Source of the DNA: a candidate division FCPU426 bacterium
GTDB lineage: Bacteria > Oederibacteriota > Muellerivitia > Muellerivitales > Muellerivitaceae
Reading direction: 5' to 3'
Length of the DNA stretch: 64,000 bases
Assembly: GCA_963796105.1 (NCBI GenBank)
Contig: CAWCKJ010000006.1
Location: forward strand, 260,109-324,108
Shown here: in pieces, positions 17,753-64,000 of the stretch
How positions within the stretch are numbered: position 1 is the first letter of the stretch
Layout: the number at the start of each line of letters is the position of its first letter
Position numbers and translations under genes: made by a program
Notes under the pieces: model-generated
Told to the model about the DNA's origin: nothing
Databases searched by the model: none
What the model saw: the letters and a program-made list of their open reading frames with translations, nothing else

Positions 17753-19029
17753 TAATAAAAACCGTTGGAATCCGGGTAACCTGTGATTCCGTTATTCGTC
17801 GCGCCTAATATTGAACTTCGGAACCCCTCGCTCCAGAAGAATGTCGCTCCATTGGCGATTCCCGTATCGACGAAGGTAACCGCTCCCGGGACGGCTTTTC
17901 CTGAGTTGCAGACTTGCACCGCGATTGTGACATCCCTATCTGGTGGGCTGTCATTTTGCTGGTATCCGGTAAAAGTAACGGCGTTCGCGTTTCCGCTCCC
18001 ATTGCTCGACCAGCCGACGAAACTTTTTGTGAGGGTAAGGTTCGCCGGGGGTGGGGAGTTTACAGGCGCCGGTGGGTTAAAAGCTTGGGTGAAGAATAGG
18101 GCTCCCCCGCAATTGCTGGTGCTGTAAGCCCCATTACTATCCGTTGATAAAAAAGGAATTTTTTGTCCGTAAACAGGATTGTAGAGAACCTGACTCCAAC
18201 AGCATTCAGTTGAGGCAGTACTGACCTGTGTAGGACTAACCCAGCCAGTGGTGTTGTAGTTGGTCGCGTACCAGTTGCTGGCGGGGGGGGTGGAGGGGGT
18301 TCCACTGCTTACGTAATCCATCTTTACGCCAGTGTTTGCGCTGGAGATTGTAGAATGCTGGCCGTTGGAACAGGTGATATCCAGGTCCCAGGAAGCGTAA
18401 AGGTTGTTGCAAGATGTGTTTTGGGTATAAATGGCGATATATGGCGTGCTGCCGGTTAAAAGGGATGTGGGAACTGTAATGCAACCAGGGGGACACATAC
18501 CGGAGCCATCCCAATTGCAATAACCGACTTGCCCCAAGTAAACCCCGCCCACATAGACCTGGGACCAGTCGTCGCTGGCCACGCAAATTTGGGCTGAGGA
18601 AGGTGTGCATTGGGCCCAGGTGTAAACTGGGGAAATAGTAGCGATAAATAAAAACCCCAAAAATCCGAATAGGAATTTGGGGCAGGTGGAGCGTTTGATA
18701 TTTTGAAGGAAATTGATATTCAATTTAATCTCCTTATATAACCGCATAGATTCTTCGAAATAAACATGGGTAAATTATACCTCTTAAAAAAATCTTTTCG
18801 TAACCGCTCTCCCTATATCTAGTGATGGACGAACCGGATTTATTCCATAATTTCCGAAACTATTTGAGGAAGTTTGTTTTATCGTTGCAACTTGGCTTTC
18901 CGGAGTGGTTTTGGCATGGATGGCATGGTCTTGCGATGGTTTGGGAATTGGAAATTGGGTTAAACGCGCATCATTAATGGTTGGTTGAGGACGCGGATTC
19001 GAAAAATTGAAAGTTGGAAAAGTCGGGGG

Positions 19030-48200: not shown

Positions 48201-48442
48201 GACCATTCACTAGAGGAAACTCGTCACGGAATGGGTACCTTCCGGATTTAAAGAATAAATATCGTCAGTCTGTTTTACAATCAATGGGAAATTGAATGAT
48301 GTAGGTCTGTTTTCATCTTTATTTGCCAGGAATAAGGATTTAAAAACTTGAAAGATATAGCGGATATCTGGTAAAACTATCGCCTAAATAAAGGCAAAAT
48401 CCATGATTTGTGGCAATATATAGGTATCTGACACAGGCTTTC

Positions 48443-48479
48443 GCGGGAATAACTCAGTGGTAGAGTGCAACCTTGCCAA
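48443..48479 (+). tRNA. 5' half of tRNA-Gly(GCC), ending at the anticodon loop (att-like junction)
   Basis: GCGGGAA TA ACTC AGTGGTA GAGT G CAACC TTGCCAA, followed by non-tRNA sequence instead of GGTTG. Confidence 0.85.
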
Positions 48480-48624
48480 CGTGAGTTCCGTCTGTCAGTT
48501 CTTTTCTGAAAAAATCCTTATAAACAAACAAAAAACTTAATTTTTTTGCCTCAGCTTCCTGATCAAATGTCACTGGTGAAGGTGTCACAAAATGCCACAA
48601 AATGACAGGGTGTGACACCAGAAT

Positions 48625-48644
48625 TTTGCCACGGCTTTGCCACA
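48625..48644 (-). repeat. Tandem GTGGCAAA repeat (arm-site/iteron-like), inverted copy
   Basis: Reverse complement reads TGTGGCAAAGCCGTGGCAAA, identical to 56859-56878. Confidence 0.7.
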
Positions 48645-48668
48645 AAAACCCATTTGAAGGGGCTCTTG

Positions 48669-48733
48669 GAATGCAACCAGAGGTAAGGTTGCATTCGCCT
48701 ATTAAAGGAGTGCAACCGGGAAGGGTTGCACTT
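48669..48733. repeat. Two TGCAACC-N6/8-GGTTGCA palindromes
   Basis: GAATGCAACC agaggtaa GGTTGCATTC and GAGTGCAACC gggaag GGTTGCACTT. Confidence 0.7.
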
Positions 48734-48799
48734 ATCTTCAAATTCCCGATGATTTTTAAATCTCAAAAAATATTCGAAAATTCCATGATTTTTTTAGGT

Positions 48800-48819
48800 T
48801 GTGGCAAAGTCGTGGCAAA
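48800..48819 (+). repeat. Tandem GTGGCAAA repeat, direct copy
   Basis: TGTGGCAAAGTCGTGGCAAA. Confidence 0.7.
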
Positions 48820-48844
48820 GTACATCTCTTGTGTATTTATTAGC

Positions 48845-48899
48845 CTCAAAATCTATCGAGAGTAATCTAATGTCGGTTCAAGTCCGACCGTAGGCACCA
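48845..48899 (+). tRNA. 3' half of tRNA-Leu(CAA), starting at the anticodon loop (att-like junction)
   Basis: CTCAAAA loop, TCTAT stem strand, long variable arm, GTCGG TTCAAGT CCGAC T arm, CGTAGGC A CCA; no D arm or 5' strand upstream. Confidence 0.8.
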
Positions 48900-49271
48900 T
48901 CTTTCCTAACACCCCTATTTTTTCGTTATTTTAGAGTTCGTTTACAACCGGAAAAGCTCTGTCCACCCTATGGGGGCAGGGTTTTTTCTTTTATGAGGGC
49001 TGGTGAGGGCTCCTGACGGGTGCTGATTGCAGAATGAGAGACGGATAAGAGACGGAAAAGTATAAAATGCCCGTGTAATGGGTGACGAACCAATATGGGT
49101 TGACACACAGTTTTTATTATGCGGGGGTAAAAGTGAAAACAACAGGTCTTCAATTTAAGTCCTTTGATCTTCATGTTTATGGCGTAAATTCTTTCCGGCA
49201 GTTGCCCTTGTGGCACAATATCCACTAGACCTTTGACTGCAACAAAACGATTAGCAGAGAGAGTGCGTTAT

Positions 49272-52200
49272 ATGTCCGTGAAGTCTTATAAGCTTAAAAT
49301 CGTTATTCCGCCCGACCGCCCTGAGATCCGGCAATGGCTGTGGAATACTCATGTTCTTTTCAATGAGGGTGTTAAATACCTCCTTCGCCAATTGTTTCTC
49401 ATGCGCCGAGGTAAGGGATGGAACCGCAAAACTAAGAATGGTTCCGCTGAGTGGGTTCCCAATCGGGAGCTTATTGACCGGTTTATACGGGTGGGAAAGA
49501 GCGCGAAAGAGGCGGAGGAACTTGCAGAGGCTTGCCGCCAAATTTACGGGCATAGTTTTCCGAAAAGCGAAAATCGGGATTCCGATGAAAAGGAATCCGA
49601 AGACGAAGAGGACCAAGAGGGTGGTGCCCAGGCGGCAAGGGGGCTATACGGTCCCTTAACCAATCCGGAATCCTCCGGCTTGGGTTTGGTGGGATTGGAG
49701 AAAATCGCCAAAAATTTGCGAAAAGCCATCCAGTCGCCCGAATCCATACGGGAGCCTGATTCCATCCGTTTTGAAAGCGGTGGCCGCAGCCCCGCACACT
49801 ACAAGATTTTCCTTGAGTGGCAATCAAAGGGCATGAAGAAAAATTCCCCATTGCGACAGAAATTCATCGACAAGGCTGAAAGTTACCTAAAGGCAAACGT
49901 TGATGAGAGCGAACTTCTATTCAGGAAGAATCTTCAAAGGGTTCGTCAAGCCTTGGGCGGGAGGGTTTTTGCGCCGGTTTCCGAGTATCTGAAGTTGTTG
50001 TCGAACGACGAAACCGGGTTTGGCGAGGAATTATCCCCGGAATGGGAGCTGGGAATGTTCACGCAGTCCTTTGAAAGACTGCTAACCCATGAGGGGTGGG
50101 CTAGCCGACGACGGAAAGAAAAGGAAGAACAGGAACGCTGGATTCAATTCAAGTTGGAAGGCGGTTGGGAGCATCTTTCCGAAAAGGAAGGAAAAGGGAA
50201 AACACCCAAGAGAATTCAGCTGAAGCCGCCTCCCGATGATCCGAAAAACTGGAAACTGGTGGAGGGTGCTCGGAACCAGGATTGGTATCTTCGATTGGGG
50301 AAATACGAGGAACAAAGGACTTTGGAGGACGGACTTTCTTCTCGACAAGGTTCCCGGGAAAAGGTTGGAATTGACGGTGGTATGACCAAAGGGTGGGGAC
50401 GGATTCGACCATTGCTATTGAAAGCATTAACGAAGGAACAAAGTTCAAAGGAACAATTAACGCAGGTCCTTAATCGTTACCAAGCCGAGAACCCAACTAG
50501 GTTCGGGGATGGAAGGCTTTTTCGCTGGCTCATCCAGGAGGAAAACCATTCCATTTGGAAGGAAAGGGATTATCTGCGGGAATATCTTCGGTTGCGTCCA
50601 AGGCCGATGGGGTCGATTACCTGGACCGACCCTGATCCGCGATTTCATCCTTTGTGGATGCGTTTTGGCCCATCCTCTGCGGTCCCCTATTCACTGGATA
50701 AAAATCTCAGTAGTGTCACCCTGAAGTTGCTCGTGCCGCATCCCCAAAAGAAAAACACCTTTGTCCAGAAGACGGTTGAAGGGGTTCCTTTGGCTCCTTA
50801 CGAAAAGTTCCAAGCCGATTTCAAATACCTGGGTAGAGCCGCAAATTCACCCAAGAAAACTGCCAAGTGGGATTCCGTGAAAGGTTCCACGGAATTGACT
50901 TATTCTGACGACCTTCTCTCCTCCGCGACCGCAAGCACCAAAGGCGCCCGTTTGATGTTTAACAGGGGACAAATCGAAAGATTGGGGCCGGGGGAGACAC
51001 CGGGGGAATATTTCCTAAATTTCAGTTGTGAAATAAAGACTTCGGAAGTCGTTCCGTGGGAGAGGGAATGGCTATATTCCTCGGGTTTTATCGCACGCAC
51101 GGGAATAGAAAATCCCTTGAAGAAAAAAGAAATTTGCGCGGAAGGTTTCTCGAAATATCGGTGGCCCTATTCGCTTATGGTGGATGGTCGGAAAAAATTG
51201 TCTCTTGAAAATGGCGCTCGAATTCTTTCCATAGACCTTGGTATGCGGCATGGCGCAGCTTGGGCTCTTTGGGGATTGTCTTTGAAGGAAGATTCTTATC
51301 ATCCCCAGGCACCAAAACCACATGTAACCGTTGAGGCGGGCGCTTCCGAGGATGGGGAAGTCGTACACGCGCATCTTTTGGGCCGGGGGCTTCTCGACCT
51401 GCCGGGGGAAGACGCTGATTTGCCGGTGGAAACTCAAAATCTCAAAGAAACAATCCGTTCCATCAAGCGCGAATTGAATGTCAATCGCCAACTGCTTTGG
51501 GTTGCCGCCAAACTATCGGAAACGGAGTATGTGACCGTTGAATGGAAGGAAAGCTTCAAGAAGCGTCGGAGTGGAAAGGGTTTTCGGCACAAATGGTCAC
51601 CGATCCGGACCAAACACACGTACTCCTCCGATCAATTACAGAAGAACGCCGTCGATGCCGCCGAAGGCTTACTCGAATTGCAGGGCATGGATGAGATTAG
51701 GAAGGAACTGGAGATGCCCTGGCCTTCTGTCGAAACTCCGGGTGATGAAACGGCTAGGCGGATTTTTTCGGAATTCGTCTTGAGCCACCGTCGAGAAGTC
51801 ACCAATATGATTTTCAAACCACAAAAACCCTTGAAGGGATTTTCGGCCAAAGACCGGAAAAACGCCTACCAACCAAATTCCATCTTTTGGAAAAGGGATA
51901 TGGAACTTCAAAAACGTGTTTTCGCGTTATGGAGGGAAGCGCGGGGAAAACGGAAAAATCGCGGAGGCCTTTCGGCGGGACGCTTGATGGTGTTGACTGA
52001 TTTTTACGACTTGTTAAAAGCCTGGACCTTTAGGCCCCGGAAACCGGGGGAGAGGCGACACATGTCGGAGGATCAGGGGTTCGCCGTAAAGGACAGGGAT
52101 CATCTCCAATCATTGAAGGATGACCGCATCAAGAAACTATCTTTCCTGATAACGGCCCGCGCCTTAGGTTATGAACCAAATTTAACTACGGGTTTGTGGA

Positions 52201-53132
52201 AATATGTGGATGAAAACGGCAAGGCGTTTTGGCAAAGGCCCGAATCTGGTGAGTTTTATAACGACCATCATGGGCGTAATGTTTGTCATCGCCCGAATAC
52301 ATTGAATGATTTGGGGGCCAAACGGCCCCATCCGGTTGGTCCATCTTGCCAATTGGTGGTCTTCGAGAACCTGACACGTTACCGGTTCCGCCAAGATCGG
52401 CCAAGAAATGAGAATTCACAGTTGATGAAGTGGTCTCATCGGGAGATTTTCAATTTTTCCAGTCAGGCGGCCCAGCTATACGGGGTTCGTACGGCTATGG
52501 TATATGCGGCCTTCAGCTCGCAGTATTGTTCTTTTTGTGGGGCGGCTGGGTGCAGGGTGACTCAGATTTCGGAAAATTGGTTTCCGGATGGACAGGCGGT
52601 CCCCTGGTTGCGCCGGATGATGGAACAAAAGGACGACAAGGGAAGGCCAACGGACAGGGCTCGGGAGTTGGCTGAGATCAAGCCGGGGGATTGGACTTCT
52701 TGGGTGTCGGGGGAAGATTTCCTGTGCTCCAATTCCAATTGCCCCCAGGGACAAAAACCCGTGAATGCCGACGAAAACGCCGCATCAAACATCGGGCGGA
52801 GGTTCTTGCAGGGTGTTCCCCCGGATTTCAGGCTAGTTTGTGAAGGGGCACCAAATAATTTGTTGAGGGTCAAAAGCGGGGAATGGAAAGGAAAGTTTTT
52901 AAAGCCTGTTTCGGAAGTTTCCTGGGTTGTTGTCGCGGAGGAAAAAGGGATGCGTAAAAGGGTCCGTAATGAACCAATTGCGGATCAAGAGGATGAGATG
53001 GAGATGGGAGAGGATAACATTAAAATCCTTTTCACTGATCCTGTATCGTTCAAGGGCAGGTGGATGGAATCCAGATTATTCTGGGGACAAGTCCGTCAGA
53101 GCGTGCGTAAAAGGCTTCAAATGATGAAATGA
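49272..53132 (+). CDS. cas12b: Type V CRISPR effector, divergent Cas12b (C2c1)-like, 1286 aa
   Basis: N-terminus SVKSYKLKI..IRQWLWNTHVLFNEGVKY; HPLWMRF; RuvC-I ILSIDLGMR (D655), RuvC-II VVFENL..DRPRNENSQLMKWSHR (E1032), RuvC-III NADENAASNI (D1167); V-B gene order. Confidence 0.88.
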   Translation: MSVKSYKLKIVIPPDRPEIRQWLWNTHVLFNEGVKYLLRQLFLMRRGKGWNRKTKNGSAEWVPNRELIDRFIRVGKSAKEAEELAEACRQIYGHSFPKSENRDSDEKESEDEEDQEGGAQAARGLYGPLTNPESSGLGLVGLEKIAKNLRKAIQSPESIREPDSIRFESGGRSPAHYKIFLEWQSKGMKKNSPLRQKFIDKAESYLKANVDESELLFRKNLQRVRQALGGRVFAPVSEYLKLLSNDETGFGEELSPEWELGMFTQSFERLLTHEGWASRRRKEKEEQERWIQFKLEGGWEHLSEKEGKGKTPKRIQLKPPPDDPKNWKLVEGARNQDWYLRLGKYEEQRTLEDGLSSRQGSREKVGIDGGMTKGWGRIRPLLLKALTKEQSSKEQLTQVLNRYQAENPTRFGDGRLFRWLIQEENHSIWKERDYLREYLRLRPRPMGSITWTDPDPRFHPLWMRFGPSSAVPYSLDKNLSSVTLKLLVPHPQKKNTFVQKTVEGVPLAPYEKFQADFKYLGRAANSPKKTAKWDSVKGSTELTYSDDLLSSATASTKGARLMFNRGQIERLGPGETPGEYFLNFSCEIKTSEVVPWEREWLYSSGFIARTGIENPLKKKEICAEGFSKYRWPYSLMVDGRKKLSLENGARILSIDLGMRHGAAWALWGLSLKEDSYHPQAPKPHVTVEAGASEDGEVVHAHLLGRGLLDLPGEDADLPVETQNLKETIRSIKRELNVNRQLLWVAAKLSETEYVTVEWKESFKKRRSGKGFRHKWSPIRTKHTYSSDQLQKNAVDAAEGLLELQGMDEIRKELEMPWPSVETPGDETARRIFSEFVLSHRREVTNMIFKPQKPLKGFSAKDRKNAYQPNSIFWKRDMELQKRVFALWREARGKRKNRGGLSAGRLMVLTDFYDLLKAWTFRPRKPGERRHMSEDQGFAVKDRDHLQSLKDDRIKKLSFLITARALGYEPNLTTGLWKYVDENGKAFWQRPESGEFYNDHHGRNVCHRPNTLNDLGAKRPHPVGPSCQLVVFENLTRYRFRQDRPRNENSQLMKWSHREIFNFSSQAAQLYGVRTAMVYAAFSSQYCSFCGAAGCRVTQISENWFPDGQAVPWLRRMMEQKDDKGRPTDRARELAEIKPGDWTSWVSGEDFLCSNSNCPQGQKPVNADENAASNIGRRFLQGVPPDFRLVCEGAPNNLLRVKSGEWKGKFLKPVSEVSWVVVAEEKGMRKRVRNEPIADQEDEMEMGEDNIKILFTDPVSFKGRWMESRLFWGQVRQSVRKRLQMMK

Positions 53133-53144
53133 CGGGAGGCATGA

Positions 53145-54989
53145 GTGGTCGAACTTCCTGATTATCTTCCGGTTCGGATGTTGAACCAATTTGTCTATTG
53201 TCCGCGCCTCTTTTATTACGAGTTTGTGGAAGGCCTTTTCGTCCACAGCGCCGACACGGTTGAGGGGACCATTCAGCACAAGAGGGTGGACAAACTCGGG
53301 AAGTCTTCCAAGCGTAAAGTCATAAAGGGGGAGGAGGCAGGAGAACAGGAAAAACCATCTGAAGTAATCCATCACCGCTCACTAACCCTTTCCAGCGAAT
53401 CCCTGAAAATTAATGCCAAGATGGATTTGGTTGAGGAAGAAGAAGGGCGATTGACTCCGGTGGATTACAAGCATTCCCGCCCATACCGTTTGGATGCGCC
53501 CCGGAAATCCTATGAAGCCACGGAGGATGATGAGGAAGAGCCGGAACCGGGCAACGAAAGTGAGGAGAAGGAAAAATGGGTGGTTTGGCCGAATGATGCT
53601 GTTCAGGTTTGCGCCCAAGGACTTGTTCTCCGGGAAAATGGTTATGACTGCCAAGGTGGATACGTCTATTACCAAGCTTCCAAACAAAAAATCCCCGTGG
53701 CTTTCACGGATGAATTGATCCTGGAAACGCGCAATGTCATTGAAAACTCCCGGAAAATCGCCATTCTAGATGTTATACCTCCGCCCCTAGTTGATAACCC
53801 TAAGTGCCTCCGGTGTTCCCTCCTCCCGATTTGTATGCCCGAGGAAACGGGACTGCTTCGTGAAAAACAACCGGACCAGGAACCGCAAACTGAGATCAGG
53901 CGAATCATCGCGGCCAGAAGTGATGAGGGGGTTTTATATGTTAATACCCAGGGGGCGCGTATTAACAAATCTGGTTCTGTATTGTGTATAAAACTGGGGA
54001 CGGGAATTCTCGCGGAGACTCCTTTGTCTGTCTTGCGACAGATCAGCTTGTTTGGCAACGTACAAATGACCGTCCAAGCGCTTCACGAAATACTGGGTTT
54101 GGGCATTCCGGTCTGCCATTTCTCAATACGAGGTTGGTTTTACGGCATTTCTCAAGGGTTACCGCTTAAAAATGTGGACCTGCGCAGAAAACAGTTTAAT
54201 TCCTTTGATGATCCGGCGACAGTTCTTGCCTTGTCGCGAAAAGTCATACAGGCGAAAATCCTGAACCAACGTACTTTTCTGATGAGGAACTCTAATGGGG
54301 TGGACGAGGCCGTTTTTCAAGACATGAAGGATTTGGCGGGGAAGGCGTCGGATTCCGCTTCCCTGGAAAGCCTCCTGGGATTCGAGGGAAGCGCCGCGAG
54401 GAAATATTTCAATTGTTTTAAGAATACCATCAAGGTGGATGTCCGGACGGGTGCTCCGGGCGAAACACCTGATGGACAGGAGAGGCTCCCATTGCCGGAC
54501 TTTTGGGAGGGAAAAAATATCTTCGATTTCGAGAACCGCAATCGCCGTCCGCCGAAGGATCCTATCAATTCCTTGCTGTCCCTGGCTTATTCAATGCTCG
54601 TAAAAGACATGACGGTAGCGTGTTATGCGGTCGGACTTGACCCCATGTTTGGTTTTTTTCATCAACCGAAATTCGGGAGGCCCGCTTTGGCGCTGGACTT
54701 GATGGAAGAATTCCGGCCCCTAATAGCTGATTCCGTGGTTCTTGGGCTTGTCAATAACCGCATGCTGAACTCGTCGCATTTTTTGTGGGGAAAAAGTGGT
54801 TGTGTACTGACCGACAAGGGAAGGGCTGTATTTTTTGAAGCCTATGAAAAACGGAAGAATTCATTGGTGACGCACCCGTTATTCGGTTACCGGATAAGTT
54901 ACGGCCGACTTTTGGAGGTGCAAGCCAGGCTTTTGGCAAAACACCTTCAGGGTGAAGTGCCGGACTATGTTGGCTTTACCACGAGGTAG
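53145..54989 (+). CDS. cas1: Cas4-Cas1 fusion
   Basis: Cas4: NQFVYCPR, KMDLVE, PVDYK, CLRCSLLPIC. Cas1: LLGFEGSAARKYF, RNRRPPKDPIN, GFFH..RPALALDLMEEFRP. Confidence 0.95.
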   Translation: MVELPDYLPVRMLNQFVYCPRLFYYEFVEGLFVHSADTVEGTIQHKRVDKLGKSSKRKVIKGEEAGEQEKPSEVIHHRSLTLSSESLKINAKMDLVEEEEGRLTPVDYKHSRPYRLDAPRKSYEATEDDEEEPEPGNESEEKEKWVVWPNDAVQVCAQGLVLRENGYDCQGGYVYYQASKQKIPVAFTDELILETRNVIENSRKIAILDVIPPPLVDNPKCLRCSLLPICMPEETGLLREKQPDQEPQTEIRRIIAARSDEGVLYVNTQGARINKSGSVLCIKLGTGILAETPLSVLRQISLFGNVQMTVQALHEILGLGIPVCHFSIRGWFYGISQGLPLKNVDLRRKQFNSFDDPATVLALSRKVIQAKILNQRTFLMRNSNGVDEAVFQDMKDLAGKASDSASLESLLGFEGSAARKYFNCFKNTIKVDVRTGAPGETPDGQERLPLPDFWEGKNIFDFENRNRRPPKDPINSLLSLAYSMLVKDMTVACYAVGLDPMFGFFHQPKFGRPALALDLMEEFRPLIADSVVLGLVNNRMLNSSHFLWGKSGCVLTDKGRAVFFEAYEKRKNSLVTHPLFGYRISYGRLLEVQARLLAKHLQGEVPDYVGFTTR

Positions 54990-54992
54990 GAC

Positions 54993-55283
54993 ATGTTGAG
55001 TGTTTATATCGTGACTTATGACATCTCAAACCCGAAGCGGCTTAATAAGGTTTTTAAGGCCCTGCATAATTACGGCGATCATCTCCAATTATCTGTTTTT
55101 GAGTGTCAAATGAGCGACAAGGATTTGGTTATCCTCAAAGAAAAATTGAATAGGATTATCAAAAAGGAGGAGGATCAGGTATTGGTTATACGGCTTGGCC
55201 CCGCCGAGGGACGGGCTGAGTTTGCAATAGAATCTCTTGGAAGACGATATGAACCTAAGGATCGGTCGATAGTAGTAGCCTGA
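54993..55283 (+). CDS. cas2: Cas2
   Basis: YIVTYDISNPKRL, HLQLSVFEC, EDQV. Confidence 0.95.
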   Translation: MLSVYIVTYDISNPKRLNKVFKALHNYGDHLQLSVFECQMSDKDLVILKEKLNRIIKKEEDQVLVIRLGPAEGRAEFAIESLGRRYEPKDRSIVVA

Positions 55284-55287
55284 CACG

Positions 55288-55316
55288 TTGACAGACTTCT
55301 TTTTCTGGTTTAACTT
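55288..55316 (+). promoter_or_regulatory. Sigma70 promoter for the predicted tracrRNA
   Basis: TTGACA-17 bp-TAACTT; predicted start near 55322. Confidence 0.65.
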
Positions 55317-55321
55317 AAGTG

Positions 55322-55452
55322 AGCTTGGTTTTTGTGTCATGGAGGGGTCACAGGATTGGCTCTGCCGTCCGAATAGCTGCCCCGGCATTTTTAAGCCCCT
55401 TGAAAAGGGTCCGAACCAAGCGGTTCTTTGAAATCGAAAGGTGGCTTCTGAC
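55322..55452 (+). ncRNA. Predicted tracrRNA
   Basis: Stem GCTTGGTT/AACCAAGC enclosing GTGTC (complement of the repeat 3' end GACAC), then degenerate anti-repeat GGTTCTTTGAAATCGAAAGGTGGCTTCTGAC. Confidence 0.7.
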
Positions 55453-55640
55453 GTCGCTGGTTTCGCGAGAGGTTTGGTGATGTGAAAACCTCCAGAGCCG
55501 CTCGAAAGGTTTTAATCGGCTTATTTATTGGAGTTTCCAATTGAACGGCATGAATGGGAGTCGAGCAATGGGGAAGATGGGCTATCCGCTCGCAGATGAT
55601 CGTTTAGTTTGTTGCCAATATTGGACTTTAGAGTGGCGCA
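55453..55640 (+). promoter_or_regulatory. CRISPR leader
   Basis: Non-coding region before repeat 1, with a gcgagag..ccgctcg inverted motif and a second ccgctcgc. Confidence 0.6.
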
Positions 55641-56623
55641 GTAGAAACACCTTCCGATAATCGAACGAGCCGACACTTCAAGACAATGGCCGAAAGAACA
55701 GGGCTTCCCGTCGATGTAGAAACACCTTCCGATAATCGAACGAGCCGACACTCGAAACCGACTCCCACAATCAATTTCTACCCACTTTGTAGAAACACCT
55801 TCCGATAATCGAACGAGCCGACACTACACTTCCCCTTATCATCCATCGGTTCATAAAAAAGTAGAAACACCTTCCGATAATCGAACGAGCCGACACTATC
55901 TCTATATTGTATAATTAAATCATAGGCAAGGCTGGTAGAAACACCTTCCGATAATCGAACGAGCCGACACTTCAAATTCACGCTCAAGGAGTACCTATGA
56001 CAGCATGTAGAAACACCTTCCGATAATCGAACGAGCCGACACGACTATTAGTAAAGGGGCGTCGTTCAAACTGGTTAAGTAGAAACACCTTCCGATAATC
56101 GAACGAGCCGACACTTATACGCCTGCTTTTGCTCATCTTGGGGAACAGAGGTAGAAACACCTTCCGATAATCGAACGAGCCGACACGCCCGTCAGCGTGG
56201 ACCTGTCTCCTCCAATTTTCTTAGTAGAAACACCTTCCGATAATCGAACGAGCCGACACGAGTGGAAGAAGATAGGGCAGTTTGACGACTACCGACGTAG
56301 AAACACCTTCCGATAATCGAACGAGCCGACACCTTCTCAATATTTGGATTTGAGAAGTGTGCCTCGGGGTAGAAACACCTTCCGATAATCGAACGAGCCG
56401 ACACCTTGGGGAGCTTATCTAGGGTTTCGCTTTGGTTGAAATTGTAGAAACACCTTCCGATAATCGAACGAGCCGACACTTATAGAAGAACGTGTAACAA
56501 ACCCAATCATTTCTGTAGAAACACCTTCCGATAATCGAACGAGCCGACACCCAAAAGGGGCAAGTCGTCTTTCACGCTCTCCCCCATGTAGAAACACCTT
56601 CCGATAATCGAACGAGCCGACAC
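55641..56623 (+). CRISPR. CRISPR array: 14 identical 36-nt repeats, 13 spacers of 35-39 nt
   Basis: Repeat GTAGAAACACCTTCCGATAATCGAACGAGCCGACAC starting at 55641, 55716, 55789, 55861, 55935, 56007, 56079, 56151, 56224, 56297, 56369, 56444, 56515, 56588. Confidence 0.99.
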
Positions 56624-56682
56624 TCAAGAAACTTCTATAACAGAGTAATTTAAAATAAACGCATTTAAGCAGATTTGGAGAC

Positions 56683-56734
56683 AGCGCGAAGCCCTTTATG
56701 CGGATTTTTAAATCCGCATAAAGGGCTTCGCGCT
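56683..56734. terminator. Perfect 25-bp inverted repeat downstream of the array
   Basis: AGCGCGAAGCCCTTTATGCGGATTT tt AAATCCGCATAAAGGGCTTCGCGCT; no U-tract, so function is uncertain. Confidence 0.5.
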
Positions 56735-56774
56735 TAGAAGCCAAATTCAGTGAGGCGGTGAATCAGGATGACAG

Positions 56775-56878
56775 GCATGCAACCGTGATCAGGTTGCACT
56801 CGTCTCTCTAAGCGATTCTTTTTCCTGCACTTTTTGTATTTTTTTTTAAAAAACTTCTTGTGGCAAAGCCGTGGCAAA
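56775..56878 (+). repeat. Third TGCAACC palindrome plus tandem GTGGCAAA repeat
   Basis: GCATGCAACC gtgatca GGTTGCACTC and TGTGGCAAAGCCGTGGCAAA (56859-56878). Confidence 0.7.
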
Positions 56879-56955
56879 TAAATTTTAAAAATATTCTTCC
56901 GCTTTTTTCCGCTTTAATTGCCCCTTCCAAAAATCCATCCTAGAATTACCGCACC

Positions 56956-58821
56956 ATGTCCTTTTTCAAAACCGTCGAGAAGCACACGCCAACTGTATTG
57001 GTCGGATTTGCCGTCTATTCTGGCGTTAAATTCATCCTGGAAGTCCTGGGAGTCCTATCCCCATCGGTTACCCCCTTTGACACTCTTTCGGCTCTTTCTG
57101 TCGGTTTCCTCTTCATGTTTGAGAAGCATGTCCACATGGATCACCTTCTGGCTTTTGCCCCGGCAGTCATCGCCCTGGCTTTTTTTCATGACTTTTTCGG
57201 GGTGTTCCTGGGGAACGAAGGGTTCACTGGGGACGTGGTGATGGGGCTTTCCATCCTGATTGGCTTCTGCATTTATTTCATCCATTTTTACATGAGGCAC
57301 ACCACGGAACACCAGGGCGAGTCGCCCCGGCACGAAGGGGGTAAGAATTCCCTGTACCTGGACGCAGAAAACAAATATTTCATTCCAGATGAACTCCTCA
57401 AATACCACACGGAAGTGATCGGATCTTCAGGAATGGGGAAGACCAACATCTTCAACCACTTGATCGAGCAGGGGATCAGGAACGGCCTGGGAATGTTCGT
57501 TTTCGACGCCAAATCCAATTACAACAAGCACATCCCCTATTACGCCCAAAAATATGGACGTCTCCACGATTTAAAGTATTTCGATTTGGCTGACATAAAA
57601 CGAAGCCAGACCTACAACCCCGACTTCAAGGACAAGCCGGACGAAGTTTTTAACGGCCTAATGAAGTCGATTTTTTATGGGCCTGTGACCCAGGAATTTT
57701 ATCGGGACCAGGCCAGCGATGTATTGAGTAACCTGACCAATCTACTTTTCATGGAGTTCAAGCACGTTACCCGGATGGATTACCAGAACCTGATATCCAA
57801 CGAGATCAGGTCTTTTGACACAATCAAAGTATTGGCTAAGAAACATGAGGACACCGTCTCGGGAAAATACTTTTTGGAGAAGTGGGTCAATATGTCGGAG
57901 AAGGACCGGGAATTGAACCTTTCGGGCCTGACTAGCAAACTTGCTCGGTTCACAAATAGGGAATGGTCACCTCTTATCAATACCCTGAACCCAGATATCA
58001 AGATGAAGGACGTGGTTGAGAAACAACAGATATTCCTATTTGGGACCTCTTCCCTGGTGAACCAGGAAGACTCTAAACCGGTCATTATTTCGGCCCTAAT
58101 AGACCTGGCGGGGGTAATAGGGAGGCGGCTAATTGAGAAGCCGGAAAGACCCTTTTTCGTGTTTTTGGACGAGTTCTATACCGCTGCATATCCCGGCCTA
58201 AACGACCTTATTTCCCTTGGTCGGGAAGCCAATGTTTGCTTCTTCCTGGCCCATCACAGTCTGGGCCAACTGGGGGCAGTCAGCCAGGAATTCAAGGACG
58301 ATATCCTTACCAACACTAATCACAAGATCGTGATGAACATCACCGAAAAAGACACAGTGGATTTTTTTGCCGCCATATTCGGAACCAAAGTCACCATGAA
58401 GGACGTTTTATCTTATGACACGCGAGTACCCCAACCCAGGGGGAAGACCGTGAAACCGGATGAGGAATTCATCATCCATCCCAATTATTTAAGGGGAATG
58501 AAACGTGGGGAAGCGGTATGCAGAATCGTCTATGTCTCAGGGCCGAAAGTTTTCAAGATGAAGCTTAAGGAAGTCAAACCTCCACCCCGAGAATTTGATT
58601 ATGTGGGCTGTGTTCCTATAAGGGATAACCACAAAAAATCAAATCAATACAACAAAATCGATTTACCAAAAGTCGAGACACCCTCGAAAACGATCCCTAA
58701 AAATGTTGAAGCAAAAAAACCGCCCAAAGAAATCCAGAAAGAAGAACCTAAAACTGACGCGGAATTATTATCCAAGGGGGAGGTTTATTCTAAAAAACTA
58801 GGGAAAGGAGAAGTTCATTGA
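56956..58821 (+). CDS. Type IV secretion coupling protein (VirD4/TraD-like)
   Basis: N-terminal TM helices, HTEVIGSSGMGKT, FDAK, YNP, VFLDEF, GREANV..AHHSLGQL. Confidence 0.88.
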   Translation: MSFFKTVEKHTPTVLVGFAVYSGVKFILEVLGVLSPSVTPFDTLSALSVGFLFMFEKHVHMDHLLAFAPAVIALAFFHDFFGVFLGNEGFTGDVVMGLSILIGFCIYFIHFYMRHTTEHQGESPRHEGGKNSLYLDAENKYFIPDELLKYHTEVIGSSGMGKTNIFNHLIEQGIRNGLGMFVFDAKSNYNKHIPYYAQKYGRLHDLKYFDLADIKRSQTYNPDFKDKPDEVFNGLMKSIFYGPVTQEFYRDQASDVLSNLTNLLFMEFKHVTRMDYQNLISNEIRSFDTIKVLAKKHEDTVSGKYFLEKWVNMSEKDRELNLSGLTSKLARFTNREWSPLINTLNPDIKMKDVVEKQQIFLFGTSSLVNQEDSKPVIISALIDLAGVIGRRLIEKPERPFFVFLDEFYTAAYPGLNDLISLGREANVCFFLAHHSLGQLGAVSQEFKDDILTNTNHKIVMNITEKDTVDFFAAIFGTKVTMKDVLSYDTRVPQPRGKTVKPDEEFIIHPNYLRGMKRGEAVCRIVYVSGPKVFKMKLKEVKPPPREFDYVGCVPIRDNHKKSNQYNKIDLPKVETPSKTIPKNVEAKKPPKEIQKEEPKTDAELLSKGEVYSKKLGKGEVH

Positions 58822-59627
58822 GGGGCCTGAAAGAAATGACTGGAATTGAAATTGAACACCTGGCATGGATTCATTCCAATAAATTTACAACTCCAGAATT
58901 GTTTCATCTGAAGTTCCTTCCTAATCAGAGTTCCAGGAACGCCTACAAAATCCTAAAAAAATACACCAGCTTGGAAAGAGACCTTTTACACGTTTTTAAG
59001 ACACCAGTGGGAAACAGTAACCTTTTTTTCTTAACTGCGGGGGCTTTAAGAACGTTGGATGAAAATAACAAAATTTTAGTGAGATCCAACAAGTATCCAA
59101 TCAAGATCAACACTCATGAAAAAGAGCACGACCTAATGGTTCAGACAGTCCGAATAACATTCGAATCTTTGGATGAACTTAGGGATATTTTTTGGGTTTC
59201 AGATTTTGAGATGCGGTCAGGAATTACACCTTCAATTAAGGCGGAATACCTGGAAGGGAAGCTGAATAAGGAAAGATGGCGCTCTAATGGGGCCAATCCA
59301 AATCCAAAAGGAAGAAGAACACCTGATGGATATTTTGAGGCAGACATTGAAGGTCGAAGAGTCTCTTTTACACTTGAACTTGAGAACCATCATTACAACG
59401 ACACTATTCTTCAAAGAATGATCGATAATTTAAAGAATGGCTTTCCTCGTGCCCTCAAACTAATCGTTTCCGCCACTCCTGGAAATGCGGTCCGGATGAT
59501 CCGTTCCCTTCAAACTAGGATTAAACCCGACGAACAGCAACAATGGTTCGTTTCCGATTTTGAGAGGGTAACCACCAAACCGTTTAAAAAATGCTGGCAC
59601 CAATTGAATAAACCATTGGCGGATTAG
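58818..59627 (+). CDS. Replication-relaxation (Replic_Relax)-like protein
   Basis: wHTH-like N-terminus, FFLT..A, EHDL, RTPDGYF, LELE; 4-nt overlap with the coupling-protein gene. Confidence 0.7.
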   Translation: MRGLKEMTGIEIEHLAWIHSNKFTTPELFHLKFLPNQSSRNAYKILKKYTSLERDLLHVFKTPVGNSNLFFLTAGALRTLDENNKILVRSNKYPIKINTHEKEHDLMVQTVRITFESLDELRDIFWVSDFEMRSGITPSIKAEYLEGKLNKERWRSNGANPNPKGRRTPDGYFEADIEGRRVSFTLELENHHYNDTILQRMIDNLKNGFPRALKLIVSATPGNAVRMIRSLQTRIKPDEQQQWFVSDFERVTTKPFKKCWHQLNKPLAD

Positions 59628-59658
59628 TCGAAATATCGAAAAACGGCCCTTGAAATAG

Positions 59659-59676
59659 TGTCAACCATAGGCGACA
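59659..59676. promoter_or_regulatory. Palindromic operator of the TA operon
   Basis: TGTCAACCATAGGCGACA just downstream of TTGAAA. Confidence 0.55.
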
Positions 59677-59693
59677 ATGAAAAGGAGAGGTAA

Positions 59694-60044
59694 TTGGAAA
59701 CAACACCTTTTGAATTAAAGGATTATGAAACACCGGATGGGCGGTGTCCTTACCAGGAATGGTATTCGGAGTTAATTAAAAAAGACCTAAGGTCTGCAAC
59801 CGCTTTAGAAAATAGGGTTAGGCGGTTAGAAAATGGCTTGCTTGGGGATTATGACGACGTTCAGGACGGTATCCTTGAACTCAGAATTCATGTAGGCCAA
59901 GGTTTTCGCATATATGTCCGTAGGATTGGTAGAACCATGATGCTTTTGCTTTCCGGCGGGGAAAAGAAAACCCAGGACCAAGATGTTAAAAAAGCCAAGG
60001 AATATTGGAACGAATTTAAAAGTAGAAATAAAGGAGTAAAGTAA
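59694..60044 (+). CDS. RelE/HigB-like addiction-module toxin
   Basis: GRCPYQEW, ILELRIHVGQGFRIY, LLLSGGEKKTQDQDV. Confidence 0.9.
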   Translation: METTPFELKDYETPDGRCPYQEWYSELIKKDLRSATALENRVRRLENGLLGDYDDVQDGILELRIHVGQGFRIYVRRIGRTMMLLLSGGEKKTQDQDVKKAKEYWNEFKSRNKGVK

Positions 60045-60343
60045 TGAAAGGCATTAGAGACCATAAATCAGCGATCATTGAACATTTAAAAACCAATGAG
60101 AACTTCCGAAAAGCTTACCTAAATGAAGCCCTTAACGAGGATGAACCTGCGGTTGTTCTTTCTATGCTTCGCGACATCGTAGATGCGACTAGGGGGTTCA
60201 CAAAACTTGCAAAAGAAACAGGCTTGGCTAGGCAAAGTCTTTATAAAGTCTTGTCTGAAAAAGGGAATCCTGAATTTGGAAGTGTTTGGAAGATCGTCCG
60301 CATATTGCGGAAAAAGAATCAAGCTTTGGTGAATGCTCGGTAA
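60044..60343 (+). CDS. Addiction-module HTH antitoxin
   Basis: AYLNEAL, GFTKLAKETGLARQSLYKVLSEKGNPEF. Confidence 0.9.
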   Translation: MKGIRDHKSAIIEHLKTNENFRKAYLNEALNEDEPAVVLSMLRDIVDATRGFTKLAKETGLARQSLYKVLSEKGNPEFGSVWKIVRILRKKNQALVNAR

Positions 60344-60347
60344 AATT

Positions 60348-62273
60348 TCATTTACCACCGTGTGGAAGGCTTTCTAAAATGTTTTGAGCCGAAGGATTGC
60401 TCGGATCGTTTTTCAAGACACGTTCCAAGCATAGTCTGGCTTCGTCGTACCGTTTAGCTAAGTAATAAAAGACGCCGAGTTTGTAGTAAAGGTCGAAATA
60501 TTTCCCGCCTGATAGATTTAATGCTTCCAAGAAAAATGCCTCGGCAGTTTGAGGATGGTTTTCCAATAAAAAAAAAGTCCCCATATTTGAAATCCCGATG
60601 GGATAATTCGCCCGCGTGTAAAAACCCATCAATAAAAAATCCCATATAGTGGGTTCGGGAAGTTTGATGAATTCAGTTGCCCTTTCCAGGACCTGATTCT
60701 GGATATTGTATTCGGCCATAATTCTGGAATCGTCAAGGGTCGGTACTTGAGGCGCATAACCTTTTTTCAAATAAATTACGGTATTCTCATCCAAGTAAAC
60801 CGGTCGCCAATCACTGTTATTTTGGAGATCAGCGACCCAACTCGTGGATATAGCTGGATTGAAAAATAGAATATTTGCGGAATTTTGGTCCGCCAAGGAT
60901 GTTATTTTTCCTGTGTACTGGGCTGAAATGTATTCTGTGAATAGTTTCTCGCCCATTACCTCCAGACGGCCATCGATAAATACCTTTTGAGGACCTTTCC
61001 AGTCCAACCAGCCTCCCGGATTCAAAGCATTTAATATCCTTCCATCTAAATGGTTTTGAATAAGGAAATCCGTGGCCCGAACGGGTTGACTTTCATCGTT
61101 CACCCCAAGGCCGAAGCGTTCGGTTCGGCGGTCGTCCACATAATAGGCGTTTGTGATAACCCGCAAACCTAGACCCGAAAGTAGAGTTATTAGGATCAAC
61201 GCAACCCATGATCTGGATAGAATCCCTTCTGTTATTTTGCGTAACCATGCCCATTCCAGGTCCTTCAAACAAGCGGCCGTAATGGGCAGGCAAATGAGGA
61301 TGAAAAGCGGAATGTTCCGTACGGCGTTTGCGGATAAATAAAAGAAAATGGCGACCAGGAAAAACTCGTGAATTTTCCGTTTCTTCCAGGTGATCAAGAT
61401 CAAAAACAATAAAAGGAAACTGAATAGCTTACAACCCCATAACTGGGCAACCGGCATAATGGGAATGTCGTAATGGACCCAAGGGGACATGAATTCATTT
61501 ATATTTGAATGGAAAAGTTTAGTGTGAAGTGTCTGCCAAAGTTGGAACGGGAATAATATCCCTCGGAAAAAATATGGGTTTAACAGGCATAAAACCATAG
61601 CCAGGCCCGAAAACCGCACCAACTTCGAATCTGCCCGGCGTTGATGGAAGATACCAGAAACCAAAAAACCAACCATCAATCCCCAACCCAGGATAAATAA
61701 ACCTTCCATGTTGGCCCAAACAACCTGGAGGATTGGAAGAAGGAATAGAAAATCCCTTTTCCGGGCCGTTCTTTGCTCCAATGTCCAAAGCATAACACTC
61801 ATAAGCAACCAACTAATGATTTCGGGCCGGACCTGGAAACGAATTTCACATTCCCATATAGCCCATGCAAACAATAGTGTGGATATCCATGTAGGCGCAC
61901 CGGTCAATCGAAGACGTGCCCATAGAAATGAAAAGACCGCGATTATTAAAACAACATTAAATAATGTAAGTAGCGGATAGCTGCCGGAAATAAAGAGCAG
62001 GTAAAGAACGACTTGATAAAGCCAATGGCCATCAACATAATCGTGATCGGGAACTGTGTAGGTGAAGGTATCCTTTGCGGGGAAACTATGATTTTGAAGT
62101 ATCCACTGGCCACTCCTTAGGTGAAAACCCAAATCCAAGTCTTGAATGGTATGTGCGCTTAATAGGGCCAGTAGGAGGAAACAAGAAATAAGTGCCCAGG
62201 ACCAAGGATTAATAAAAAAAGATCGGATTGAGGCCGAAAGAGGACGGGTTTGTAGGGAAGATTGAGTTGACAT
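60348..62273 (-). CDS. Polytopic membrane protein (GT-C-like) with C-terminal TPR
   Basis: DLGFHLRSGQWI, RPE, WANMEG, NPY, FIDGR motifs; TPR tail. Confidence 0.75.
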   Translation of the reverse strand: MSTQSSLQTRPLSASIRSFFINPWSWALISCFLLLALLSAHTIQDLDLGFHLRSGQWILQNHSFPAKDTFTYTVPDHDYVDGHWLYQVVLYLLFISGSYPLLTLFNVVLIIAVFSFLWARLRLTGAPTWISTLLFAWAIWECEIRFQVRPEIISWLLMSVMLWTLEQRTARKRDFLFLLPILQVVWANMEGLFILGWGLMVGFLVSGIFHQRRADSKLVRFSGLAMVLCLLNPYFFRGILFPFQLWQTLHTKLFHSNINEFMSPWVHYDIPIMPVAQLWGCKLFSFLLLFLILITWKKRKIHEFFLVAIFFYLSANAVRNIPLFILICLPITAACLKDLEWAWLRKITEGILSRSWVALILITLLSGLGLRVITNAYYVDDRRTERFGLGVNDESQPVRATDFLIQNHLDGRILNALNPGGWLDWKGPQKVFIDGRLEVMGEKLFTEYISAQYTGKITSLADQNSANILFFNPAISTSWVADLQNNSDWRPVYLDENTVIYLKKGYAPQVPTLDDSRIMAEYNIQNQVLERATEFIKLPEPTIWDFLLMGFYTRANYPIGISNMGTFFLLENHPQTAEAFFLEALNLSGGKYFDLYYKLGVFYYLAKRYDEARLCLERVLKNDPSNPSAQNILESLPHGGK

Positions 62274-62535
62274 TAGGTGGATTATAACAAACGTTCCATA
62301 TTTCAAATGGAGAAGAGATATTGAACTAGGGAGACCAAACAACAACCTTCTAAAAGCCCGATTTAAATCCATCTATTATCGATATCGGGTCAATTTGAAA
62401 GAACATGTTATGATTTTGGGGATTAAAAAGAATCAACCTTTGGTTCACGCTCGGTAAAATTCCATAAGAGGGTTAGGAAGCCTAAATATGTTGCTATTTC
62501 GATATAGCGTTTAACCCGTGAAACCGAATTTTACT

Positions 62536-62714
62536 TGCCTATACGGAAAGCGCATCTTAAGTTGGATTCTACTGGTGCACTCATGACACAAGTCTCCCCC
62601 TCTGAAAAGAGGGGGAATAAGGGGAAGTTAGCCTTTTATCAACGACAAATACCCCCCCACCCCCCTTTTCAAAGGGGGGCAAAGAATTCGTGAGATGCAC
62701 TTTCCGTATAGGCA
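62536..62714. mobile_element. MITE-like element with 22-bp terminal inverted repeats
   Basis: TGCCTATACGGAAAGCGCATCT / AGATGCACTTTCCGTATAGGCA (21/22); internal poly-C/poly-G hairpins. Confidence 0.65.
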
Positions 62715-63229
62715 TGGAATTTTAATATAGACAATGAATATTCATTGATGTATTAACCGTAGTGATTTTCATCACTTTTATTTTGGTGGTTTTCAAATGG
62801 ACGAATTCATATTTGAACACGCACCTACAGGAAAAAGATCAAAAATTAAGGCAAATAACTCAGATATAGCCATGATCCTTTGTTTCCAGATAAATGGCTG
62901 GTTACCAGGTGAAATCCTTTATCTTGGTCGTGCTTCCACTGTCGAAAACCTCTCCTTTTTAAAATACAGAGACGAACTCCATTACATCCCCGGTGGTCGT
63001 TTCTAAAAAATTGCCTAAATTCGGGGAATCTTTTTTTTCAAGAAAGATACCCTTTTGAAGCGTAAAAACAGGAGAAGTAATATAATTAGATGACAAATTA
63101 AGTTGGGATCATTAGGGCCAACCTCAGTAACTGATAAATCCATAAAAAAATATAACGAGACGGGGAATAAAACCGCGCATACCACCACTATATAGCAGAG
63201 ATAAAGTCGTTTCTGTTTGGAGGCCACTC

Positions 63230-64000
63230 ATGGGAATCAAGAATTTTTGGACAGCGGGAATTTTATTAATAGTGTTTGTCTTGCCATTGGCTTGCCAACG
63301 TTACCTTCCTACCGCACCCAAACCAAAGGGAATAACCACACCCAATGGTGGTGTGGTATCGACTATTGCGGGGTCTGTTAGTGCGTTCGCTAACGGAACG
63401 GGAACTGGTGCAGCTTTCAATTGGCCCGCTGGTATAGCTGTCGATGCCTCTGATAATTTGTACATCGCAGATGCTGGCAATCAATTAATCCGGTTAATAA
63501 CAACCGGAGCCGTGGTTTCGACTATAGCTGGTCAAGTTGGGGTTACTGGTTCTATGAACGCAACTGGAACTTCAGCATCTTTCTTTGATCCAAGCGGAGT
63601 CGCCGTTGATACCTCGGGAAATATATACGTTGCGGATTACGCCAACTCACTTATTCGTAAAATCACATCGGGTGGCGTGGTTTCGACCTTGGCGGGTCAA
63701 GTTGGGGTTACAGGAGCTACTAATGCGACGGGGACTTCTGCGTCATTTAATTATCCTGAAGGAGTCGCGGTGGACACCTCTGGAAATGTATATGTCGCTG
63801 ACACTGGTAATAATCTGATCCGGGTTATCTCTCCGGGGGGTGTTGTGTCAACTTTGGCGGACAGGCTGGTGTTACAGGTGCCACTAACGCAACGGGCACT
63901 TCAGCATCTTTCAATAATCCCTATGGGGTTGCGGTTGACACTTCCGGAAATGTGTACGTCGCGGACACTGGTAATAATTTGATCCGGGTTATCACCTCAG
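63230..64000 (+). CDS. NHL-repeat (beta-propeller) lipoprotein with an apparent frameshift near 63860
   Basis: Lipobox PLAC; repeats F..P.GVAVD.SGN.YVAD..N.LIR.I, which continue in another frame after 63860. Confidence 0.8.

Follow-up and report, generated by a model that had tools for sequence, protein, structure and literature searches.

In Streptococcus salivarius, decayed units that are flanked by attachment (att) sites and lack an integrase stand in tandem with integrative and conjugative elements (ICEs). According to the available text of a survey of that species (PMC7563491), these units are gene-less microCIMEs of 130–220 bp and cis-mobilizable elements (CIMEs) of 1.2–13 kb, in the order microCIME-CIME-ICE-target; CIME-ICE accretion and cis-mobilization have been reviewed (PMC5704250). 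Here, we compare with these systems a locus in a 64,000-nucleotide stretch of DNA (the window) from a candidate division FCPU426 bacterium (contig CAWCKJ010000006.1), in which a CRISPR-Cas locus with a divergent Cas12b lies among copies of a short palindrome and of a tandem repeat. We consider it probable that these motifs are the core and arm sites of an integrase, that the end of an ICE that carries the coupling-protein gene starts at position 56778, and that Cas12b is a passenger that the integrase, encoded at the far end of the ICE, joined to the coupling-protein end and would take along on excision of the whole composite.

Other described systems bear on parts of this arrangement. ICESt1 has an internal attL′, and Tn916 has coupling sequences whose mismatches are tolerated (PMC5812530); for IntDOT, a match of one or two bases is enough (PMC2817482). 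Among the genomic islands of Islander, those that leave a 5′ fragment of the tRNA gene are a rare class and number 159 of 3919 (PMC4383910). The pdif modules of Acinetobacter swap between sites with different spacers, yet the reaction needs near-identical ones (PMC13141974).

The locus resembles the tandems of ICESt1 and ICESt3 in that att-flanked, decayed units without an integrase adjoin an ICE and lie farthest from the target gene, and this layout is what we find: tRNA 5′ half, gene-less unit of about 190 bp, cargo, what appear to be two ICEs, and tRNA. The short repeat shared by the junctions in accretion is kept at the outer junctions, as TTGCCAA, and fails inside, where the spacers read AGAGGTAA, GGGAAG and GTGATCA. 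Unlike streptococcal accretion, the target is the anticodon loop of tRNA-Gly, with a 5′ fragment left behind, and the inner junctions differ from the target and in length. In addition, two ICEs apparently stand in tandem, an arrangement not observed in the S. salivarius survey (PMC7563491). As in the Islander 5′-fragment islands, the break in the tRNA gene is at the anticodon loop, the gene is restored by the element, and the far end is recognizable by the displaced 5′ fragment; the inner core array and the mirror-symmetric arms are not described for those islands in the accessible text (PMC4383910). Recombination of mismatched overlaps, as by Tn916 Int and IntDOT, would explain the varied inner spacers. 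The ends of the ICE body are mismatched (GTGATCA versus TTGCCAA) and the spacers are varied, with drift explaining part of this. Unlike those integrases, which use AT-rich targets, the one considered here has a specific tRNA target and a GC-rich palindromic core. Finally, as with pdif, several recombinase sites with different spacers bracket modules that are exchanged between related backbones, but pdif is an asymmetric 11-6-11 site for host XerC/XerD and has no arms, whereas the site here is symmetric and tRNA-derived, with arm repeats and an element-encoded integrase. A literature search, which left most subscription papers uncovered, found neither the element family nor an att array of this kind with Cas12b described.

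Probable core and arm sites and the tRNA-Gly integrase

In what follows, G000 is the genome of the window (contigs C1, C3, C5, C6, C7, C16 and so on, the window being on C6), G001 a sister species, G075 a member of another genus and G021 its congener; L numbers denote fetched loci, and phylum-wide searches covered 99 genomes. The palindrome TGCAACC-N6-8-GGTTGCA and the tandem TGTGGCAAAGYCGTGGCAAA each have three matches in the window and none in any of 100 shuffles of the sequence. A preliminary description had placed these motifs on both sides of the Cas locus, and they are there, far above chance. Its spacing of 85–90 bp between palindrome and tandem fits one of the two direct copies (89 bp from start to start) and not the other (81 bp), and the mirror-image copy that it saw at 48625–48696 does contain an inverted arm and a palindrome, but with a gap of merely 27–28 bp between them. 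Nor is there a duplicated block. The short motifs recur, but the linkers of the direct copies (69 and 60 bp) are unrelated (alignment score -16; shuffled mean -13), which rules out a single duplication of one module around the Cas locus, and the spacers of the three palindromes differ in sequence and in length (8, 6 and 7 bp). The same description had overlooked the 5′ half of a tRNA-Gly(GCC) gene at 48443–48479 and the 3′ part of a tRNA-Leu(CAA) gene at 48841–48900. Coordinates are collected in Table 1.

Table 1. Features of the att array, the Cas12b locus and the adjoining ICE end, in window coordinates
Feature	Position	Strand	Basis or remark
Likely relic of the 3′ coding part of a tRNA-Gly integrase gene	48311..48362	+	~80% identity over ~50 bp to the int genes of L041, L042, L001 and L004
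tRNA-Gly(GCC) 5′ half, broken off where the anticodon loop ends; outer att junction	48443..48479	+	same junction in G001 and G075
Gene-less 192-bp unit, microCIME-like	48480..48671	+	TGTCAC/TGCCAC/GTGACA hexamers and inverted arm pair
Arm-type tandem, inverted, type 1, 11-bp period	48625..48644	-	pattern scan and arm comparison
Core palindrome 1	48672..48693	none	8-bp spacer AGAGGTAA; G001:C15 match ends here
Core palindrome 2	48711..48730	none	6-bp spacer GGGAAG; right flank common to G000:C7:57055, G001:C16 and G075
Arm-type tandem, 70 bp past core 2	48800..48819	+	pattern scan and arm comparison
tRNA-Leu(CAA) 3′ part (48841-48900) with terminator-like flank; remnant att end of a tRNA-Leu island	48841..49059	+	like the tRNA-Leu flank of G001:C3
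cas12b, 1286 aa, divergent; RuvC-type motifs at residues 653, 1029 and 1165	49272..53132	+	NF033949, 479 bits (cut-off 150)
cas4-cas1 fusion (Cas4g/Cas1g)	53145..54989	+	NF049935 above cut-off
cas2	54993..55283	+	
CRISPR array, 14 identical 36-nt repeats, 13 spacers	55641..56623	+	
Perfect 25-bp inverted repeat after the array	56683..56734	none	
Core palindrome 3; left end of the ICE body	56778..56798	none	7-bp spacer GTGATCA; 100% identity with G001:C15 from the first base
Arm-type tandem, 61 bp past core 3	56859..56878	+	mirrors the arm 64 bp before the tRNA-Gly core beside the C16 integrase
Type IV coupling protein, TrwB/TraD-like	56956..58821	+	PF10412 and PF12696 above cut-off
Probable MobC-like relaxase, weak match	58818..59627	+	NF041423, E=2.4e-4, 20.5 bits (cut-off 200); no Pfam match
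Toxin-antitoxin-like pair, Gp49-like and HI1420-like	59694..60343	+	

The palindrome follows the pattern of the tRNA-Gly anticodon arm, TGCAACC-TTGCCAA-GGTTGAA, and the consensus of the 32 half sites in 16 chosen sites matches its stem, GAGTGCAACC. G000 has 36 integrase matches, two of which (on C3 and C16; 56% identical) end just upstream of a tRNA-Gly 5′ part, and at both places an inverted arm tandem stands between the integrase gene and tRNA-Gly. The order integrase-arm-tRNA-Gly(-Cys) is found in G000:C3, G001:C19, G075 and the metagenome contig L042. Because the palindrome copies the anticodon arm and the tandem sits between integrase gene and tRNA-Gly, the palindromes are likely the core sites, and the GTGGCA tandems the arm sites, of a tRNA-Gly(GCC) tyrosine integrase. 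As sequence patterns, the parts of such a system are in place: a core inverted repeat with a 6–8 bp overlap and arm-type direct repeats at fixed spacing.

The two ends of the element mirror each other. On the integrase side, the arm TGCCACGGCTTTGCCAC lies 63–64 bp before the tRNA core, and on the coupling-protein side its reverse complement lies 61–62 bp after the palindrome. The second integrase has an arm type of its own, with distances of 51 bp and 49–50 bp on the two sides. Thus, each of the two integrase paralogues matches its own arm type and spacing at both element ends (61–64 bp and 49–51 bp), and arm type pairs core 3 of the window with the C16 integrase (ICE-A) and the C16 core with the C3 integrase (ICE-B). 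Together with the copied anticodon arm and the place of the tandem, this agreement bears out the proposal of the preliminary description that the motifs are recombinase core and arm sites. ICE-A is about 54 kb long and has VirB4-like and VirB6-like genes and a type I-E Cas operon. Of the conjugation genes, the coupling protein, a TraG P-loop ATPase and TrbL/VirB6 were found, with a relaxase match far below its cut-off and the contiguity in G000 inferred via G001. Between the VirB4-like gene and the integrase, a TPR-GGDEF gene and a SpoVG-like gene are conserved (L001:17758–19227, L048:2582–3928). The type I-E operon (Cas3, Cse1, Cas7-like, Cas5, Cas6e, Cas1; G000:C16:46592–55056, seen in L002 and L009) lies inside the ICE body, so a composite with the Cas12b locus would carry two CRISPR types; G001:C14 shares the type I-E region at 96–98%.

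A restored tRNA at one end, a displaced fragment at the other and an empty site in a relative are all found in G075 and G021; the G000 ends are on different contigs. In G075, a displaced tRNA-Gly 5′ half lies about 32 kb upstream and is followed by a unit 80% identical to window positions 48442–48658, with both ends on one contig, and the tRNA-Gly site of G021 is empty. The gene-less unit of the window recurs at equivalent places with identities, gaps excluded, of 88% (G001:C15), 82% (G001:C29), 76% (G075) and 66% (G000:C16), and the YchF locus adjoins a gene-less unit in both G000 and G001.

The integrase family is small. The integrase scores above the cut-off of PF00589; R247 and K282 are invariant, R354, H377 and Y386 nearly so (alignment A1), and the first His of the HxxR motif is replaced by Tyr. 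These are positions of the tyrosine-recombinase catalytic pentad. The tRNA-Gly integrase occurs in three of the 99 genomes, and the family counts 11 database proteins so far. A metagenome scan with a single integrase query gave 211 candidate stretches, none of them confirmed, and a scan with the integrase alignment gave one locus in genomes and one in metagenomes. Plasmids yielded two weak matches at 28%, a PDB sequence search nothing beyond an XerC-like protein, and an atlas look-up gave general phage-integrase clusters only; on XerC/D models it scores 20–28 bits against cut-offs of about 330.

The exact palindrome occurs five times in G000, five times in G001, once in each of three other genomes and in none of the remaining 94; the arm pattern is present in three of five genomes tested, namely those with the integrase, and had no match in viral contigs. 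A loose core scan allowing one mismatch per half gave 32 sites against 27 in the reversed control, i.e., no excess, so degenerate core sites were picked by context. Cores, half sites and arms also cluster at G000:C3:2586–4103 and C7:190446, around small open reading frames (ORFs) or with no transfer genes nearby; these are probably decayed ends.

The observed order in the window is tRNA-Gly 5′ half, 192-bp unit, cores 1 and 2, tRNA-Leu remnant, Cas12b locus, core 3, arm and coupling protein. It would be accounted for if integration at the tRNA anticodon loop restored the 5′ part of the gene, and if rounds of integration, deletion and decay left microCIME- and CIME-like units in a row, linked to one another by core sites. 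Excision between the mirror-image ICE ends (GGTTGCA-61 bp-arm, and arm-64 bp-TGCAACC in the tRNA 5′ half) would rebuild a symmetric attP. With TTGCCAA retained at the outer junctions, a composite with Cas12b inside could excise and transfer by ordinary matched recombination; with varied spacers at the inner cores, swapping there would probably need some mismatch tolerance.

Exchange of cargo and the Cas12b locus

Cargo exchange is seen by comparison with G001. Its contig C15 is 100% identical to window positions 56778–64000, beginning at the first base of palindrome 3, and upstream of that core it carries genes for TetR, an outer-membrane efflux protein (OEP) and AcrB instead of Cas12b. Their boundary is a palindrome in the position of core 1, which follows an 86% match to 48443–48696. 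On the right, the identity of G001 and G000 extends through integrase and tRNA-Gly and gives way to divergence about 15 bp past tRNA-Gly. The ICE is 99–100% identical between the two species and the chromosomal genes 77–87%, so the ICE was likely exchanged recently. The suggestion that the Cas locus is cargo between two copies of the module thus holds insofar as it is swappable, since the same core 3 carries TetR-OEP-AcrB upstream in G001; such cargo is likely exchanged by the integrase, which would also take it from cell to cell.

In a set of 32 junctions, sites with homologous left flanks can have unrelated right flanks, and vice versa, so that flanks assort independently across the palindrome. 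Spacers were compared, with half sites, at 16 of these junction sites, hand-picked for homologous flanks, and 15 of the 16 spacers are distinct. In family A, the spacers are 62% identical and the left flanks of its three copies 97–100%; in the core-2 family, the figures are 28% and 88%. In both families, the spacers thus show excess change. Cargo can be large. A 49-kb block between two cores (G000:C7:8124–56863), with genes for GH2, GH35, GH44, LacI and AraC regulators and FlgD/FlgK-like proteins, is 91–97% identical in G001 at another locus, where a gene-less unit and a core, close to YchF, precede one of its ends. Clean empty secondary sites corresponding to the cores at C7:7961 and C3:16903 were sought in G001 and not found; homology breaks off about 160 bp short of the first core and begins about 50 bp beyond the second.

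The Cas locus itself is of type V-B, with the genes and array of that type: Cas12b, a Cas4-Cas1 fusion, Cas2 and an array of 36-nt repeats. It is unlike known examples in its Cas12b, which is 31% identical to the nearest database protein; among the 99 genomes, Cas12b is present in G000 and absent from G001 and the other 97. A Cas12b so divergent that keeps RuvC-type motifs is a candidate for characterization. A partial anti-repeat lies near 55420–55449, with no Rfam match for a tracrRNA. The inverted repeat after the array is taken to be part of the cargo because it is unique within G000 and the fetched loci and absent from the G001 allele; Rfam gave the hairpin at 56683 only matches to miRNA models, far below gathering scores. 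No convincing spacer targets were found in G000 or the fetched loci, and the best phage match, spacer 7 (56115–56150) against Microviridae VP1 genes, is not significant (88% over 34 nt, E=0.08).

Neither 48480–48671 nor 48731–56777 holds integrase or transfer genes. About 160 bp past the tRNA-Leu 3′ part resemble the flank of the tRNA-Leu gene of G001, and it is probable that Cas12b first reached the tandem on a tRNA-Leu island and was later trimmed at a core-like half site. Three features bear on whether the Cas unit could excise by itself: the flanking spacers are mismatched, the two direct module copies belong to different end families, and the cargo starts with the tRNA-Leu att remnant. 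Crossover would be expected in or at the palindromes, rather than joining 48820 to 56879, the junction that the preliminary description proposed to look for. Mismatch tolerance would be required for the Cas unit to excise on its own, and likewise for the ICE body to excise at core 3, where GTGATCA would be paired with TTGCCAA.

Weighing the att-site reading against its rivals

It is possible, although we think it rather unlikely, that the inner cores form a maintained, integron-like exchange platform, an internal attP (arm, core, arm) at which the element's own integrase adds and removes half-site-flanked units regardless of spacer. Every Gly-type left end examined has at least two inner cores or half sites and variable content (Cas12b; TetR-OEP-AcrB; a 2-kb unit with 36- and 60-bp units; an interruption by an insertion sequence in G075), the half sites that flank unrelated cargo are well preserved on either side, and both the near absence of repeated spacers and the low spacer identity beside the nearly identical left flanks of family A would be expected of such a platform. 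Known accretion and decay give the same picture, however, and no cargo unit was found at two different places with both ends intact. Moreover, the spacer differences in the coupling-protein and D end families (71% identity) are roughly as large as flank divergence would produce, a tRNA-Leu att remnant stands at the start of the Cas unit, whose right half site is among the weakest, and the inner sites of G075 are degenerate. A related and equally tentative proposal is that one integrase serves a two-tier attachment system, with an outer, spacer-faithful tRNA-Gly site and an inner, spacer-blind, integron-like slot with randomized 6–8 bp spacers; such a slot would have taken Cas12b, the efflux pump and the 49-kb glycoside-hydrolase block and moved them between species.

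The palindromes might instead be operators of an ICE regulator, or integrase-binding sites without crossover, with cargo changed by nearby homologous recombination or deletion. The module lies 190–320 bp upstream of the coupling-protein gene, the homology of family D runs about 20 bp beyond the left half site, and one cargo breakpoint, between G000:C16 and G001:C14, is away from the core. These observations are outweighed by the start of the G001 identity at the very first base of palindrome 3, the equality of the half site with the tRNA-Gly anticodon stem beside the integrase, the switch of flank homology at the palindrome in several families and the range of spacer lengths (6–8 bp), and we regard this explanation as improbable.

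The preliminary description had also offered an origin of transfer (oriT) or relaxosome site, with a Replic_Relax protein as its partner. The protein has no Replic_Relax match in Pfam and a weak MobC-family match instead, and that match, with the position of one module copy just upstream of the coupling-protein and relaxase genes, is what speaks for an oriT of a MobC-like relaxase. We counted 14 close copies of the coupling protein (at least 80% identity, five genomes; copies at 31–37% and one 75% fragment were excluded, and G075:C9 offers just 400 bp of upstream DNA). Core and arm lie 190–320 bp upstream in six; the other eight lack the module, seven having a tRNA gene or fragment (Asp, Thr, Met) at that place and one having neither. 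The arm pattern is missing from G072 and G006, which do have close copies of the coupling protein, and the same arm stands beside the integrase gene at the opposite element end. The module thus tracks the tRNA-Gly integrase rather than the coupling protein or relaxase, and we reject the oriT reading, to which we would give hardly any credence. In this family of ICEs, whose integrases are exchangeable, the module takes the attachment position.

Several points weigh against the interpretation that we prefer, i.e., integrase core and arm sites with Cas12b as a passenger on the ICE end. The integrase gene lies outside the window, and its structural model has a low mean pLDDT (predicted local distance difference test) of 57, with full-length lambda Int the best match in a fold search and Tn1549 Int lower. 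In G075, which has the integrase, the exact palindrome is missing, and the contig with the integrase yielded no close match to the coupling protein. The 99–100% identity of the ICE could partly reflect binning of shared contigs. The C6–C16 link depends on a G001 contig that bridges C6, C5 and C16 at 99.9%, the ICE-B link from C16 to C1/C3 is drawn from arm type, and C5 has at 49414–54265 a 99.9% duplicate of window positions 59150–64000 that starts inside the relaxase gene, being either a second copy or an assembly fork. (C5 holds another cas1.) The 71% spacer identity noted above is close to flank identity, the ~20 bp left of the palindrome common to three copies of family D mean that not every breakpoint is in the spacer, and the G000:C16–G001:C14 difference breaks away from any core. 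Among the loci examined, the coupling-protein end is never joined directly to the tRNA-Gly 5′ half, as it would be in a simple attL, and the type-1 gene-less unit has no GGTTG half site after the tRNA loop. The tRNA-Leu start of the Cas unit, with its tRNA-Leu-like flank, means that Cas12b probably came in first with a different island, and the story is less clean for it.

Since a ~50-bp relic of an integrase gene precedes the tRNA-Gly half, this outer junction may be a decayed tandem joint, not a native start. That the half is an untouched native gene start is doubtful for the same reason, and because the gene upstream of tRNA-Gly in G021 and G075 maps to a different place in G000. A ~50-bp piece of integrase coding sequence is kept upstream of tRNA-Gly halves at several decayed ends, and a weaker look-alike precedes the intact tRNA-Gly in G006 and G074 (L055, L056). 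This piece may be a promoter within the integrase gene that drives the restored tRNA operon; a consensus scan of the relic called no promoter.

Other features and significance

The same ICE backbone occurs with a second 5′-fragment system, marked by a tRNA-Leu(CAG) 5′ half near RNase R/SmpB in the G000:C7:57560 region; the integrase upstream of the full tRNA-Leu(CAG), at C2:3239–4131, belongs to it. Trios of adjacent tyrosine recombinase genes, reminiscent of RIT elements, are at G000:C1:883–3292, C16:881–7562, C14:73694–76058, C4:40745–43148 and C15:1226–3650. Elsewhere in the window, an ORF of 1658 aa with repeated domains and low-complexity repeat linkers occupies 11162–16138 (- strand), and a shorter paralogous ORF occupies 17668–18747 (- strand).

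Read from its sequence, the locus is most likely a genuine array of att sites that belongs to a small family of tRNA-Gly integrases and in which a divergent Cas12b rides as an exchangeable passenger. What sets it apart is the targeting that leaves a tRNA 5′ fragment, the mirror-symmetric ends and the inner spacers varied in sequence and length, which hint at mismatch-tolerant, cassette-like swapping. The integrase family is now defined together with its core and arm sites and is open to assay. If matching spacers are needed, what the locus shows is ICE accretion of the known kind, in a well-resolved example. If it is true that mismatched 6–8 bp spacers join while the tRNA target stays strict, the family would add to the few homology-relaxed tyrosine recombinases and be a possible tool. 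For the uncultured lineage itself, the array shows to the base how a rare, divergent Cas12b, along with other large cargo, is likely to pass from one species to another.

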